Of a stretch of 64,000 nucleotides of DNA, positions 19,763 through 25,582 are shown piece after piece. The notes under the pieces are model-generated. The model did no database searches and had not been told where the DNA came from. It was given only the letters and a program-made list of their open reading frames with translations. Location of the stretch: NCBI GenBank assembly GCA_040217195.1, contig JAVJNR010000004.1:544001-608000 (forward strand), given 5' to 3'. The DNA is from Leptospiraceae bacterium (lineage in GTDB: Bacteria > Spirochaetota > Leptospiria > Leptospirales > Leptonemataceae). The position numbers and the translations under genes were made by a program. Position 1 is the stretch's first letter. Each line of letters opens with the position of its first letter.

Positions 19763-22300
19763 TTAGACGCCGGGTAGATCCATCTGCTTTAGATCCCTGC
19801 GCTGAAAGTAACCCACAGGTGCAGCATATTCCCAGACCTCGCGAAAAGCATCCAGTAACAGCTGATTATAATAGGCAATACTATAAGGAGGTTGTTTTCG
19901 GGGATCCGTTCCAAAGGATTGAAAGGCTATTTCTTCAGACATATATTTGGAAGCCCCTGGCTGGCCTTTCTCAAGCACAATATACTTCACTTTTTCTCCT
20001 GCCTGAACCTGAATCCCATAGGGCTCCAGTTCACGCAATGCAGCCGGTGCAGGACCATCTACGGCATAATCCTCCAGGCCCTTGCTCACGGTTCGCCTGA
20101 GTAGCAAATCGGTCCAGGGAATGCTTCTGCTGCTTAGCTCTTCTTTGAATTTGTTATAGATTTCTTCCATCTCTGAATGCATGGACTTCAATTCTTCTGC
20201 ACTCCTGCAAAGGGCCATTTTATCCAGAAAAGCCTCCTGAACAGTCTTGATCCAGGAGGGTCTATCCTTCCTTCTAACTGAAATACCACGGATGCGCAAA
20301 CTGCCATCCCGGAATCTACCAAAATAGCGATTCACTACTTCCACTCCAGGCTTTGAGCGGGAAGGTAGAAAAATCACCCAGTCATAGATGCCCTCCACGC
20401 TCATCTCGATTTCAGTGGCTGCTCCAATCTCTTCGCATACCTTCTCCAGTTCCTGCAGTTCGGATGCCTCCCGCTTTTCTTTTGACTCGACGATCTGAGT
20501 CGGACGATTCGAGTCATTGTCCGGAAGTTTGAGAAATAGGCAGTCTGTAATTCCATGAACTACGCTGTAATTCCATTCCTCTGCAATCTCCTTGGCATTG
20601 AGTAACTTATCTCGCCCAAATGCAGTAACCGCCTCATGGCTTTCGATCTTACCAAATTTAGCATTCCTGTAGCCAAGGTATCCGAAGGAGGTCACCAGCA
20701 TCCACTTCAGGCTTGATTGACGATGATCGTACATCTCCTTCTCTTCTTCCAGAGATTTCAGCTTCTGATCTCTTTCAGTCTCAGAATTTACATGCGAATC
20801 ACCTGAGTCCGGAATCCACTTTTTTATTTTCTCTATGGACCGGTTTAACTCTTTAATTCTGAGTTTATAGTGCTTTCTTCGCTTTAGAATGTGAGCCAGA
20901 GCGTCGGATACAATACCGCGTCGCCTTTTGCAGATTCGAAAATTAATCTCCGGAACATGCTCGGTTTCTTCATCGGAACAACAGCGACAGTTGATTGTTT
21001 CAGGAGATACGTTGTGAATACTCATTATTGAAGGATACATCTGGGAAAAATCGATCTGAGCCACGTTCTCCAGAATTCGACCTGCACGTGGAACAAATAC
21101 CAGCCCTCCTTTATCTGCCTCCAGAAGATCCATCACCGTACGTGGCTCCTCCAGGGCACTTTTCTGCCAGGGAACCAGATAGTTTTTCCGTAGAGCCACT
21201 TCACATTCAATGGCCGTTAGCGCAGCCCCGGTGGAAGATCTGGATAATCTTTGCACTGGAATTCGACTCATTCTGGATAGTTCAACAATGCCCATGAGTT
21301 GCGCTTCTTTGTATACGAAGGAATTCGCACTGTCTATGTGCCAGCGCCCAAATAGCGGATAGGAAGGAGCGAGAAAGATCCAGTTTCCATAGGTATTGTA
21401 GCTGGTTCCTTCGGTAACTATCTTTCTGCTGGATCCAGGAGCGACGTCCCGGTCCAGAAACGATGGAATACCATACTTCTGATAGGCCTGAAAGAGCACC
21501 GGAAAAAGCACCTGGTCGCCGTAGGCAGAAAGAATTATATCCGGGTCCAGGGTGTTCAGGTAGTCATTCAATGCTTCCAGTTCCCCGGGTCCTGGAGGCA
21601 CCGGCAAATCCAGACGCCTGCCCTGACATTCCAGCTGGATGCGCTGATCCGGAACATGAAATCTTTTGTGGGCACCTCTGGATAATAATTGCTGATGCGT
21701 AAGTCGATGGCCATAGTTCAGCTGCATTCTTAGTATGCGAACCGAAGGTAGCTGAAAATTCAGATCAAAAATATCATCCAGTGCCTGAATCCACTCCAGA
21801 TTATGAACAACCGGTGCCTGGCCAGCATTTCGCGTACCGGAAGACGCAAAACTGAGGCAGGCCCTCAGTCTACAAAGAGGAAATATTCCCTTTTGCTGCA
21901 TATAGCCAGTGGGAACCTCAAAGTCTGTGTGAAAAAGGTCCATGCGACCGTACATTGCATACAGTCGGTTTCTGATTTTTCGAAGCAAAGAAGGCCTGCT
22001 AATGCGAAGCTCCAGAACATCCACCATACGGTTCTCATAGAAAAGCTTTCTTTGCACATACACTGGATCTGAATGCAGTCCATCCATTTCATGTAATCGT
22101 TGCACCAGTTTCTGAAGTGTCTTTTCCGGGGCTCGGGCATATATAACAGGATTGAAATGATCCCTGCAGAGATAAAACCTTCCCTGTTCATCCAGAATAC
22201 ATAGATAAATCTGATCTTCCAGGTGGTAGATATCGAAAAGCCATCCGCGAACTGCGATCTGCCCTTTTTCGGAAGCGGTTGAGTGAGGGGAGCTATCCAT
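19763..22300 (-). CDS. Family B DNA polymerase, PolB2-group-like
   Basis: Motif A IDFSQMYPSIM...HNVSPET, motif B LKWMLVTSFGYLG, motif C altered to HGITDC, NRYFG, RGISVRRKD; no intact ExoI DxE seen. Confidence 0.9.
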   Translation of the reverse strand: MDSSPHSTASEKGQIAVRGWLFDIYHLEDQIYLCILDEQGRFYLCRDHFNPVIYARAPEKTLQKLVQRLHEMDGLHSDPVYVQRKLFYENRMVDVLELRISRPSLLRKIRNRLYAMYGRMDLFHTDFEVPTGYMQQKGIFPLCRLRACLSFASSGTRNAGQAPVVHNLEWIQALDDIFDLNFQLPSVRILRMQLNYGHRLTHQQLLSRGAHKRFHVPDQRIQLECQGRRLDLPVPPGPGELEALNDYLNTLDPDIILSAYGDQVLFPVLFQAYQKYGIPSFLDRDVAPGSSRKIVTEGTSYNTYGNWIFLAPSYPLFGRWHIDSANSFVYKEAQLMGIVELSRMSRIPVQRLSRSSTGAALTAIECEVALRKNYLVPWQKSALEEPRTVMDLLEADKGGLVFVPRAGRILENVAQIDFSQMYPSIMSIHNVSPETINCRCCSDEETEHVPEINFRICKRRRGIVSDALAHILKRRKHYKLRIKELNRSIEKIKKWIPDSGDSHVNSETERDQKLKSLEEEKEMYDHRQSSLKWMLVTSFGYLGYRNAKFGKIESHEAVTAFGRDKLLNAKEIAEEWNYSVVHGITDCLFLKLPDNDSNRPTQIVESKEKREASELQELEKVCEEIGAATEIEMSVEGIYDWVIFLPSRSKPGVEVVNRYFGRFRDGSLRIRGISVRRKDRPSWIKTVQEAFLDKMALCRSAEELKSMHSEMEEIYNKFKEELSSRSIPWTDLLLRRTVSKGLEDYAVDGPAPAALRELEPYGIQVQAGEKVKYIVLEKGQPGASKYMSEEIAFQSFGTDPRKQPPYSIAYYNQLLLDAFREVWEYAAPVGYFQRRDLKQMDLPGV

Positions 22301-22404
22301 GATTCTTCTTGCCGCAATCTCTCTGCAATCGGAAGGCTTTGACTGCAGACCGGGACAGGGAAGGCCTAAAGACCTAAGTCTTAGTTTTTGCTCTTACGTG
22401 CATT

Positions 22405-22695
22405 TCAGGATCTACCCGCATCGGAAGAAGGGCTTTCTCTCTCTTTTTCCAGAGCTTCTACTCGACGCTGCAGAGAGACTATTTCTTTATGCATTTCAAT
22501 CATCATACACATGGCCATGGAATCAAATGGATTGGGCTGGGCTGCCATGACTCCCACCTGCAACTGTGATCTTGCAGAAATCATTAATGCGTCAAAAGAC
22601 ATCCGATCTTCTTTTCGCAGAGCCTTTCTAAATTTACTGAAACGTTCATAGACACTGTCCACCAGGTTTGAATATGGCTGTAGAGTTCTTCCCAT
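22405..22695 (-). CDS. Small alpha-helical PolB2-associated protein (PPB2/arCOG07300-like)
   Basis: 96 aa, MGRTLQPY...FRKALRKEDR..FDAL pattern; AGGAG RBS; sits between the RadA-like gene and polB. Confidence 0.75.
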   Translation of the reverse strand: MGRTLQPYSNLVDSVYERFSKFRKALRKEDRMSFDALMISARSQLQVGVMAAQPNPFDSMAMCMMIEMHKEIVSLQRRVEALEKERESPSSDAGRS

Positions 22696-22718
22696 AAGCT
22701 TCTCCTTTGCAAAAAAGG

Positions 22719-23459
22719 TTACACTGAAACAATCCTGGATCTCTCAATTTCGGATTCTGGCAGTACATCCTTCGCATAAAAAGGAATTGTACGATTTCGC
22801 TGCAAATTCATATCCCTAAGTACAAGTGGTCGGTCTTTTTTACGCTTCTGTTTTTCTCTCGTAGAAGGAAGAGCATCCAGTTGCCATTGATATTCGGTCA
22901 GAGTACTGAATGCAGAAATCGCTCCTCCAAACAGTTTGCTCTTATACGAACCTGTTTCCACAATCAGATAGGGAATGCCCGCCTCATTCCATAAAGAAAG
23001 TACTGAAGCCAGCTTCTTAAGTAAGAATCCAGCCTCTTCCTCCTGCACGTCTCCATCAAAGAACTGCTTACAGGGTGCGAAGATAAAATACAAAGAGGGA
23101 TTAGAGCTTCGCCTTTCTTTATGCCATACAGACCAGAACAGATCCAGGATCTGGTAAGGAGTAAAGGCACGTTGAACCATAATAGATTTTAGCATCTCTT
23201 CGCCAGGAATCTCTCTGCGAAGTGCTTCATCCATAAGCTGGAATGCATTGAATCGAATGGAACAGTCTATATTAAAGATGCGATAACCACTCTGCCAGAG
23301 ATGAACCTGCAATATATGACTGAGCGGGAAAATCGGCGATGCACCGTACAGAAGTGCAGGCGAACGACGATCCCAGAAATGGGTAGACTGAACCGATTCA
23401 ACCAGAAGGTGAGACTCCATACTGGGAATCTCGACAACATGCCGTCTTTTGTAAAGCAT
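22719..23459 (-). CDS. Inactivated RadA/RecA-like protein (iRadA)
   Basis: RadA-like segments FNIDCSIRFNAFQL and IMVQRAFTPYQ, but Walker A (LYGASPIF, no GKT) and Walker B are degenerate. Confidence 0.7.
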   Translation of the reverse strand: MLYKRRHVVEIPSMESHLLVESVQSTHFWDRRSPALLYGASPIFPLSHILQVHLWQSGYRIFNIDCSIRFNAFQLMDEALRREIPGEEMLKSIMVQRAFTPYQILDLFWSVWHKERRSSNPSLYFIFAPCKQFFDGDVQEEEAGFLLKKLASVLSLWNEAGIPYLIVETGSYKSKLFGGAISAFSTLTEYQWQLDALPSTREKQKRKKDRPLVLRDMNLQRNRTIPFYAKDVLPESEIERSRIVSV

Positions 23460-23536
23460 ATATATGACGGCATATCGGTTTTAATGCTCCGGATCGCCAC
23501 TTCCCCGGAAGAAGCCAGCCGCAACTGTCCAGCCAG

Positions 23537-23564
23537 GTGCTCTGGCACGATGTGCTAGAGCACA
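23537..23564. promoter_or_regulatory. Tandem palindromic operator candidates GTGC-N4-GCAC (two copies)
   Basis: GTGC-TCTG-GCAC (23537-23548) and T-GTGC-TAGA-GCAC-A (23551-23564), about 80-105 bp upstream of the iRadA start. Confidence 0.45.
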
Positions 23565-23638
23565 GAATTATGGCACATCGCCCTACCTGGCTTCCTCAAA
23601 TTGAAGTATTCTCGATAGAATGGAGGCTCCTCCGGCCG

Positions 23639-23895
23639 GATTAGCTCGTAACCGCCTTCCTGATGTGAAGCGAGGGTAGATTATGTCTCATTGAGGCTTC
23701 TAATGCGACAACCGGGAAGATTATGTCCCATTGTGCGGCCCCATCCGACATGGAGCCAGATTATGTCGCATTCGCTGACTCAATTTGAATTCCGGCTACA
23801 TTATGCCTCATCGAGCAGACCCTATGCGAAACAGCAACGAATTATGTCGCATTAGGCGGTCCCATGTATGACAGCGGCAAATCATGTCACAATTG
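23639..23895. repeat. Non-coding tandem array, ~40-bp period, conserved RATTATGTCNCATT core with variable intervening segments
   Basis: Unit starts at 23639 (degenerate), 23679, 23719, 23759, 23799, 23840, 23880; cores GATTATGTCTCATT, GATTATGTCCCATT, GATTATGTCGCATT, CATTATGCCTCATC, AATTATGTCGCATT, AATCATGTCACAAT. Confidence 0.9.
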
Positions 23896-23897
23896 TA

Positions 23898-23906
23898 TGC
23901 TATAAT
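23898..23906 (+). promoter_or_regulatory. Extended -10 sigma70 promoter candidate (TGnTATAAT)
   Basis: TG-C-TATAAT perfect match directly after the last array core. Confidence 0.5.
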
Positions 23907-24198: not shown

Positions 24199-24861
24199 AT
24201 GCCCCAGTACATCACCTACGATCTTACCTCTTATGCACACCGAGAATTCCTGCTGGAATATACGAATGCACAGAGACCTGATGTTGAGCTAATCGCTGAT
24301 ATTCTTAGAACCAGCATTTCCACAGGAACGCCACTGGAGCCAGGAGATAAAGTCCAGATCGGATGCTATCTATGCCGAGTCATCGACCGGGGGGATTATC
24401 TGGGACTGGAAGAGCCCTCTTTTCCATCCGATCCTCTGGAATGGGTGGACTCCGTTGATGCCACAGCTCATTATTTAAGGCTGCAAAAGGCTGCTGCAGA
24501 GTCCTGCAATCTGGCAGATGATCTGAGCTTTCCTGCGATCACACATACTGCATTCGTCTGCAGCGCCATCGATTCCGCTGAAGGAATCTTCATGGATCGC
24601 GTAGGACCGGTGTCAGATCAAGACTCAGGCTGGTTTATCGCCTGTTCGGACCAGAACCACGATCACGACTCCAGGGATAACCTCCGGCAAGAATCCCTGT
24701 ATGTACTTTCAATCAAGAAGCCGGTGGTAATTCCTTTCCTGGGTTTTCCGGTAGGCACCACAGCCATGATCAAGCCCGATGAAAGACCTCGCGTACTCTT
24801 ACATGGAGCAATGATACGCCCGGAGCATGATAGCTACCTGGACCGAGCTTCCGAAACATGA
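24199..24861 (+). CDS. Imm33/DUF2185-like immunity-domain protein
   Basis: 220 aa; C-terminal DRVGPVSDQDSGWFI...FLGFPVG pattern characteristic of Imm33-type domains. Confidence 0.6.
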   Translation: MPQYITYDLTSYAHREFLLEYTNAQRPDVELIADILRTSISTGTPLEPGDKVQIGCYLCRVIDRGDYLGLEEPSFPSDPLEWVDSVDATAHYLRLQKAAAESCNLADDLSFPAITHTAFVCSAIDSAEGIFMDRVGPVSDQDSGWFIACSDQNHDHDSRDNLRQESLYVLSIKKPVVIPFLGFPVGTTAMIKPDERPRVLLHGAMIRPEHDSYLDRASET

Positions 24862-24914
24862 AGCACTGACAATAGAGCCAGCGCTCCAGCAGGTCCCTAC
24901 CCGGCAAGGGCCAG

Positions 24915-25271
24915 TCATCCACCAGATCGCCGGGAAGGTTTTCCGGACACCACTATGCATTTCTGATGAAAAATCAGATACCAGCGTTCTACCATTTCTA
25001 TCTCCACGTTGCTGAGCCCTCTGGTACCTGCAGGGGACTTGCTCATTGCCACCTGGAAGGCTGCGGCAGGAGAACCTTCATCCAGGGAAACAAAGAACAG
25101 GTAGCCATTCACACAGGCTTCCCCTTCTACGGTTTCCTGCGATAATACCTCTATTTCGCTAAATTTTCCCGATCCAATAAAGGGTCCCTGAGAGTCGAAA
25201 GTAAAGGTGCTGCAAGAAATGGAAGTCAGGGTGGCTAATATTCCGATGAATACTGGAATTCTAGATTTCAT
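24915..25271 (-). CDS. Small lipoprotein, TRL-like
   Basis: Lipobox (SISC); VEGEACVNGYLFF and C-terminal KCIVVSG pattern. Confidence 0.65.
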   Translation of the reverse strand: MKSRIPVFIGILATLTSISCSTFTFDSQGPFIGSGKFSEIEVLSQETVEGEACVNGYLFFVSLDEGSPAAAFQVAMSKSPAGTRGLSNVEIEMVERWYLIFHQKCIVVSGKPSRRSGG

Positions 25272-25582
25272 TTCTCTTCTCCCTCCAGAACAATGCAGGT
25301 AGCCAGGGCACCTTTTTCAGGAGCTGGCTGCAAGCTTACCTTGAAGTTCATTAGATAATCAATGTCCGACTCCACCATGTATTCGCGGATTTCAGAATAC
25401 ATTCCGTCCGGATCCAGAAGATTATCGCATTGCACTTCATATCTTTGCGATGCTTCTGAAGCCTGAAATGGTTCCGAAGACATCTCTACGTAGTGCAATT
25501 TGCCCATGGAATGATAGATACAATTTGGTAAGCCCAGGCCCAGCAGGATCAGGCTTATTCCAGAAAAAACCGACAATCTCAT
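25268..25582 (-). CDS. Small lipoprotein, distantly TRL-like
   Basis: Lipobox (LPNC); C-terminal TCIVLEG; ATGA overlap with the downstream lipoprotein gene. Confidence 0.6.
   Translation of the reverse strand: MRLSVFSGISLILLGLGLPNCIYHSMGKLHYVEMSSEPFQASEASQRYEVQCDNLLDPDGMYSEIREYMVESDIDYLMNFKVSLQPAPEKGALATCIVLEGEEK

Follow-up and report, generated by a model that had tools for sequence, protein, structure and literature searches.

A tandem array upstream of an iRadA-PPB2-PolB2 operon in a Leptospiraceae bacterium, probably composed of predicted XerD half-sites with no essential tie to the operon

What is a 40-bp tandem array doing upstream of a polymerase operon? In a 64,000-nucleotide stretch of a Leptospiraceae bacterium genome (contig JAVJNR010000004.1, positions 544,001 to 608,000; referred to at its full length as the window), genes for an inactivated RadA homolog (iRadA), a small helical protein (PPB2) and a PolB2-group DNA polymerase are preceded by an array of units each headed by the 11-bp box TTATGTCnCAT. 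An earlier note on this DNA proposed that the array is a functional part of the polymerase module, for example a regulatory platform, a loading or priming site, or a source of short RNAs. Comparison of the sequence with related genomes leads us to a different answer: the boxes are probably landing pads for XerD, and the array probably has no essential tie to the adjoining operon. This would remove a tempting but false link, that of the array as a PolB2 accessory, and it brings into view an order-wide feature, dozens of lone XerD arms per genome lying far from the terminus, some of them in fast-changing tandem arrays. Genomes, contigs and comparison loci are numbered G, C and L below, with G000 the genome that contains the window.

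The array lies where the earlier note had placed it, 180-435 bp from the first ATG of the operon, with boxes at 23680, 23720, 23760, 23800, 23841 and 23881. A further, decayed box at 23640 extends it, so that the spacing reads 40/40/40/40/41/40; four boxes are exact, one carries a single mismatch and two are decayed. Six boxes within one mismatch fall in the 739-bp intergenic region, against a maximum of three in 20,000 shuffles. Identity across the five core units is 88% in the box and only 32-38% elsewhere, and since the box alone resists drift, the pattern points to protein binding on double-stranded DNA. Tandem Repeats Finder did not detect the array because its units are too diverged.

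Which protein might bind is suggested by the chromosome dimer resolution site. The array box is identical over 11 bp to the right (XerD) arm of this genome's own dif, of which there are three full 11-6-11 sites, CTTCCGATAA-N6-TTATGTCTCA, one each on contigs C5, C8 and C9. The C5 site (G000:C5:423391-423418) lies 25 kb from the GC-skew maximum, the polarity of FtsK-orienting polar sequences (KOPS) flips across it (24:6 on the left, 0:22 on the right), and dnaA sits at the opposite skew switch. The dif pattern was found in 40 of 41 related genomes, with controls giving 0-1, and the wobble base of the box varies in dif right arms as it does in lone boxes. Among the genes of G000 are xerD (C10:700542-701432; TIGR02225, above cut-off), smc and one resembling xerC. 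At the position where dif carries its XerC arm, all six array units show 7-10 mismatches out of 10. We therefore discarded the units as dif sites, which consist of an XerC arm, a 6-bp centre and an XerD arm; having neither XerC arm nor 6-bp centre, the array would serve as a landing pad and not for normal dif recombination. Elsewhere in the window, at 641-668, a dif-shaped 28-mer combines a near-consensus XerD arm with a poor XerC arm.

In front of several array units stands the outer part of an inverted XerD arm, which together with the box forms a 29-bp pair. This geometry recurs in 12 of 12 such matches in the genus, G005 has a single copy of the pair upstream of iRadA, and the pair is the probable ancestral unit of the array. 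XerD would bind each box alone or, at the 29-bp units, as an inverted pair. The array would have begun as one unit and grown by local tandem duplication, after which everything but the box drifted; such an origin is suggested by the mutual relatedness of the variable parts (z 5.9), by the near-identical units of other arrays and by changes in copy number between close relatives. The G000 counterpart of the arm-N6-arm sites found in other genomes (see the table) has the 29-bp geometry instead; it lies at C8:201466, next to rep/parB and at the skew minimum.

The box is not confined to the operon. G000 holds 48 copies of TTATGTCnCAT against 3.5 expected under a fifth-order Markov model, and every position is selected (44 copies versus 0-6 for single-change variants). 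The 48 copies form 31 clusters, six of them multi-copy, and 34 lie outside called open reading frames (ORFs) in a genome that is 89% coding. Single boxes adjoin lexA, recX, ftsQ, fliF, flhF, rpsL, rpsB, nrdJ, a dnaA paralog and other genes. That paralog is a second full-length DnaA (G000:C5:323647-324966, TIGR00362 E 1e-43); it lies roughly 100 kb from dif, and a lone XerD arm stands 178 bp upstream of it. Boxes also occur at the skew minimum of C8 and near that of C9, which are probable origins. Because half-sites adjoin so many unrelated genes, the array probably reads as XerD landing pads and not as part of the polymerase system.

Lone XerD arms occur in 3-69 copies in all 41 related Leptospirales genomes, above control in 40, and among 150 genomes of the phylum box enrichment is confined to Leptospirales and a few other families. 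The highest count, 69 in G040, is inflated, since most of 30 inspected boxes there (L107-L136) sit in one dispersed repeat carrying the motif GTGGGAACT; boxes abut this motif in G014, G024, G025 and G030 too, an arrangement that recalls mosaics of repetitive extragenic palindromes and integration host factor sites (REP-IHF). Three enriched genomes outside the order in which dif was identified (G041, G111 and G117) have the same XerD arm. G052, G065, G142, G069 and G042 have other dif arms and no box enrichment, and five genomes searched for one alternative arm contain only one or two copies each. A loose dif pattern, among the matches listed, stayed at control level across 32 spirochaete genomes. 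A scan for tandem boxes in metagenomes and viruses gave 3 viral and at least 80 metagenome loci (at least 120 stretches), and the 83 listed include no match to iRadA, PPB2 or PolB2 (0/83). Most of these loci are probably unrelated satellites of near-identical units; L362, L374 and L381, among those listed, resemble the arrays of the genus.

To ask whether the array belongs to the module, we compared 400 bp upstream of iRadA in other genomes. Seventy-three loci, all Leptospirales-like or from spirochaetes, were fetched, and 70 were used after three with less than 250 nt upstream had been dropped. An exact box was present at 10 and a one-mismatch box at 8, where shuffles give 0.1 and 2.7, and 52 had no box within one mismatch. 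Only two loci carried at least two exact copies, both from the same genus, and arrays of the same box stand beside unrelated genes (see the table), the pattern that the earlier note had named as refuting its proposal. Within the genus the picture differs in degree: all six genomes with the operon carry at least one box upstream of iRadA, one in G003, G004 and G005, two or three exact copies in G006 and G002, and four exact copies in G000. Outside it, 5 of 64 loci have an exact box, in about three lineages. This excess outside the genus is modest and related genomes are non-independent, so that some tie to the operon may exist; as part of the joint reading favoured here, the polymerase module probably works with no need of the array.

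Several observations weigh against identifying the boxes with XerD arms and the array with a unit foreign to the operon. Among the matches listed, 8 of 11 enriched genomes outside the order have no dif by the patterns used. In G010 both dif-like sites (C80:84-111 and C85:9429-9456) end in TTATGTTCCGT, yet the genome has 35 lone boxes, and milder departures of the dif arm from the lone-box consensus occur in G011, G015, G017 and G019. Lone boxes also prefer GGA at -3 to -1 whatever the genome's dif centre, a preference unexplained by dif. Half of the tested arrays (6 of 12) have variable parts no more alike than shuffles (z<2). In G005, where dif lies at 308 kb, boxes are scattered between 1 kb and 4.85 Mb, a spread unlike that of terminus-restricted XerD sites. 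Finally, an exact box lies upstream of iRadA at 10 of the 70 loci and upstream of only 25 of 1659 G000 genes (1.5%).

This last imbalance is also an argument that the box, bound by XerD or by something else, regulates nearby promoters and that the array tunes the PolB2 operon and DNA-maintenance genes by copy number, a reading we consider unlikely. The exact box in 6/6 genus genomes and at 5/64 iRadA loci beyond them is joined by an exact box upstream of lexA in all seven genus loci (1-5 copies each), by boxes at recX, nrdJ, dnaX, a dnaA paralog and ftsQ, and by its absence from all 29 metK control upstream regions. But a box within one mismatch is missing from most iRadA loci and, outside the genus, from all 23 lexA loci; the array stands 180 bp or more upstream of the probable LexA operator; box orientation relative to iRadA varies among lineages, and where intergenic regions of three other genomes are co-directional the two orientations split 12 versus 10. 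Many box neighbours are ribosomal, flagellar or metabolic genes, and the non-independence of related genomes applies here as well. The earlier notion of a regulatory platform thus survives in a weak form, as a box upstream of iRadA in every genus genome with the operon and in a few other lineages, and fails as a claim that the array is part of the module. A second doubtful alternative keeps the binding and replaces the binder: some other DNA-binding protein, perhaps recombinase-derived, could have a site that happens to match the XerD arm. Read by itself, the box nearly forms a palindrome, TTATG-N3-CATWA; G000 has two further integrase-family genes, and both the off-consensus dif arms of G010 and further genomes and the extra GGA preference would fit. 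Coincidence is harder to reconcile with identity over 11-12 bp including the wobble position, with covariation of box and dif arms across families, and with perfect XerD arm-N6-XerD arm sites, in dif geometry, on the second replicons of five Leptospiraceae genomes. The confidence that we attach to the favoured reading and to its rivals overlaps.

Two further readings fare worse. It is very unlikely that the boxes are -26 elements of a PafBC-like activator and the array a stack of damage-inducible promoters. PafB and PafC homologs are encoded, the box contains tGTC, and the last unit has the full geometry (TGTCAC-N10-TATAAT at 23885-23906 on the plus strand). However, TAnnnT at the 10-nt distance follows only 1 of 48 exact boxes, that last unit being alone within the array, and it is directed away from the operon, toward an Imm33-like gene; the query found no PafC in ten box-enriched genomes outside the order and a single weak match in an eleventh. 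Box geometry and PafC distribution thus speak against PafB as the binder. Least probable of all, and largely refuted, is that the array yields short RNAs, forms a priming or loading structure for the PolB2 complex, or stores captured spacers. A regular period, variable parts and inverted half-arms able to form hairpins would suit these ideas, but neither strand folds better than shuffles (z = -0.37 and -1.25), Rfam returned two chance-level matches, none better than E 2.4, and multi-copy exact arrays are missing from 68 of 70 homologous operons. Of 43 distinct inverted-pair matches, only 17 have complementary wobble bases (hand count), from which we rejected selection for hairpins, and the variable parts resemble one another and match no other sequence of the genome above 21/27. 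Related variable parts and the missing structure signal likewise set the array apart from CRISPR- and TIGR-like RNA arrays, whose marks are unrelated spacers, structured or processed RNA and associated effector genes. The box reverse strand ends CATAAT, and we tried the box as a sigma-70 -10 element; it often faces the gene start in G000, but the 12 versus 10 split in three other genomes does not bear this out as a general rule. A KOPS-like replication-strand polarity was also set aside as weak (25 versus 16 clusters, loose matches included).

If XerD does bind lone arms, what would it do there? Reportedly, XerD-only sites (XDS), a finding attributed to Karaboja et al. 2021, are where XerD unloads SMC at the Bacillus subtilis terminus. 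In sequence the boxes resemble XDS, matching the XerD half of dif with the XerC arm absent, in a genome with SMC; they are not concentrated at the terminus, as the spread in G005 shows, and, unlike the XDS of the terminus region, they lie chromosome-wide, close to promoters and at secondary origins, often as tandem arrays whose period varies. An architectural, XDS-like role seems to us the most likely one given XerD binding, although we hold it tentatively: bound XerD would unload or block SMC, or anchor the locus, across the chromosome and at secondary-replicon origins. SMC unloading itself is only a guess, because the sites are chromosome-wide. Bolder, and rather improbable, is that in Leptospirales and related lineages of spirochaetes XerD has a second, non-recombination job throughout the chromosome: it would occupy dozens of orphan half-sites, at secondary origins and close to the promoters of genes for DNA maintenance and the cell cycle, and expandable arrays would serve as a dose dial linking the mutagenic PolB2 operon, and lexA, to chromosome segregation. 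Either way, if XerD binds lone arms, its non-recombining role, now tied to the unloading of SMC at the terminus, would reach across the whole chromosome or into gene control. A search of main texts, mostly outside subscription journals, gave no published description of chromosome-wide orphan XerD arms in tandem arrays.

Set beside other site systems, the array shares with dif the 11-bp XerD arm of its own genome (PMC2731167, PMC5357621) and departs from it in having no XerC arm, in an inverted partner, where there is one, that comprises only part of a XerD arm and leaves a 7-nt centre, and in the many copies distant from the terminus. Like Acinetobacter pdif modules and the attachment sites of integrative mobile elements exploiting Xer (IMEX), the boxes are dif-related sequences in several copies outside the terminus; pdif and IMEX sites are complete C/D sites flanking genes, whereas the boxes are half-sites with non-coding stretches of 16-60 nt separating them. 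The last array unit and recA share TGTC-N-geometry with PafBC and sigma-adaptation promoters, and the tandem PafB and PafC homologs recall actinobacterial PafBC (PMC8635444, PMC6789036); unlike that system, ours is in a spirochaete order and only one array unit fits, directed away from the operon.

Table. Coordinates and notes for features of the window and for related sites elsewhere; window positions count from its first letter.
Feature	Position	Strand	Remarks
PolB2-group B-family DNA polymerase, 845 aa	19763..22300	-	Pfam DNA_pol_B E 1e-32
PPB2, small helical partner, 96 aa	22405..22695	-	N-terminal MGRT
iRadA, inactivated RadA/Rad51 homolog, 246 aa	22719..23459	-	AlphaFold2 model pLDDT 84
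LexA1-type operator, probable	23441..23456	-	CTTTAC-N4-GACGGC, overlaps -35-like hexamer
Two GTGC-N4-GCAC palindromes 15 bp apart	23537..23563	.	probable local 15-bp duplication
Isolated degenerate box copy	23567..23579	+	1 mismatch in 11-mer
Array of 40-41-bp units, each headed by lone XerD arm A-TTATGTCnCAT-T	23640..23894	+	
29-bp inverted pair	23703..23731	.	outer part of inverted XerD arm, 7-nt centre, full XerD arm
Divergent Imm33-like gene	24199..24861	+	Pfam PF24719 E 3e-9
Multi-copy box cluster beside groES			period 32-33
Multi-copy box cluster before dnaX			period 29-33
Multi-copy box cluster between rpsD and phosphatase gene			period 36
Multi-copy box cluster between gcvH and gcvP			period 65-73
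Multi-copy box cluster before plasmid-type parA			period 28
XerD arm-N6-XerD arm sites	G029:C2:292871, G030:C2:64867, G036:C2:2057, G025:C22:272922, G033:C2:1907		

The operon itself is of an already known kind, by its sequence features an ordinary bacterial iRadA-PPB2-PolB2 translesion-polymerase operon. Its three co-oriented ORFs are as first described, and the assignment of their products holds from motifs, fold and gene order. Structural models of the PolB2 complex are already published. The best NCBIfam match of the polymerase is NF004416 (E 9e-104, under that family's cut-off); motif A is preceded by a DK motif, motif C (residues 582-589) reads ITD at 584-586 with Ile replacing the first Asp of DxD, and a clamp-like QMDLP lies at residue 839 near the C-terminus. 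The polymerase is present in 30 of 41 related genomes searched, and one Leptospiraceae genome (G027) has two such operons, at C10:120631-122895 and 679882-682131. PPB2 forms three helices in a low-confidence single-sequence model (predicted local distance difference test, pLDDT, 63) and clusters in the ESM Atlas with DUF8156 at 0.94, archaeal members included. The iRadA model matches RAD51, RadA and DMC1 cores (E 2e-11, 13-18% identity), so it has the RadA/Rad51 core fold; the N-terminal domain and ATPase motifs are absent, and no GxxGxGKT Walker A appears in its alignment. Its true start is probably at 23420, since that Met opens the G003 ORF and the alignment with distant relatives also sets in near it. 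According to Timinskas et al. 2025 (PMC11791011), iRadA-PPB2-PolB2 is the sole gene order in bacteria and MGRT the PPB2 hallmark. The operon agrees with the mutasome operon described there in gene order, in the MGRT arm of PPB2, in a polymerase with Ile in place of the first Asp of DxD and a clamp-like motif at its C-terminus, in a RadA fold lacking ATPase motifs and in the link to LexA, with no substantial difference; the main text of that paper does not mention Leptospira.

Control of the operon most likely lies with LexA1, which would repress it at 23441-23456. The left half of this site matches CTnnAC, the right half departs from GTnnAG, and the LexA1 consensus is given as CTnnACnnnnGTnnAG in PMC4756842. 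We read the operon as a LexA-repressed mutasome from what is known of the family together with a conserved half-box: CTWDACR occurs within -130 to +30 of iRadA at 54 of 70 loci, against 8 expected from shuffles, and is often doubled at 15 bp. The two GTGC-N4-GCAC palindromes (23537-23548 and 23552-23563) that the earlier note took for operators are indeed present, but none of the 70 homologous loci has them, and genome-wide the 31 copies fall among the 27-38 found across spacers of 0-8, so there is no enrichment. Nor did they qualify as LexA1 operators, with no CTnnACnnnnGTnnAG match within two mismatches there. Their two 15-nt units agree at 10 of 15 letters, and they are probably a local 15-bp duplication rather than conserved operators.

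The comparison with PafBC had a result of its own. Tandem WYL genes directly upstream of xerC (G000:C4:338921-341975; L341:2922-5976) are pafB- and pafC-like (mycobacterial PafB E 1e-6, PafC E 3e-27), and PafC homologs were found in 13 of 15 Leptospirales genomes searched. With the PafBC promoter geometry given as tGTCgg(N10)tA(N3)T in PMC8635444, we searched for TGTC-nS-N10-YAnnnT and found it upstream of recA at 25 of 30 loci, other spacings giving at most one; lexA (0/30), metK (0/29) and iRadA (1/25) showed next to none. G000 has 16 intergenic matches, including those before recA, recX, recJ, ogt, dps and dcm and the last array unit; spacer 15 gave 17, so the genome-wide count alone is not significant. 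Box matches with one or two mismatches upstream of recA are explained by the PafBC-type element and were dropped as boxes. In the searched literature we found no description of PafBC-type recA promoters or PafB-PafC homologs in Leptospira. Taken together the matches suggest a PafBC-like DNA-damage regulon in Leptospirales, which could explain LexA-independent damage induction in Leptospira; it does not account for the array.

On the far side of the array, the Imm33-like gene adjoins the operon in G000, G002 and G006 only, among the six genus genomes. G003, G004 and G005 have, judged by eye, elements comparable to that of the last array unit, directed away from iRadA; in G003 and G004 these TGTC-type elements face the end of an esterase gene. 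In the window, the interval 24199-25582 between array and esterase gene holds the Imm33-like gene and two small divergent or convergent ORFs, one of them TRL-like, and it appears to be a variable insertion site because in G003 and G004 the esterase gene ends within about 300 bp of iRadA.

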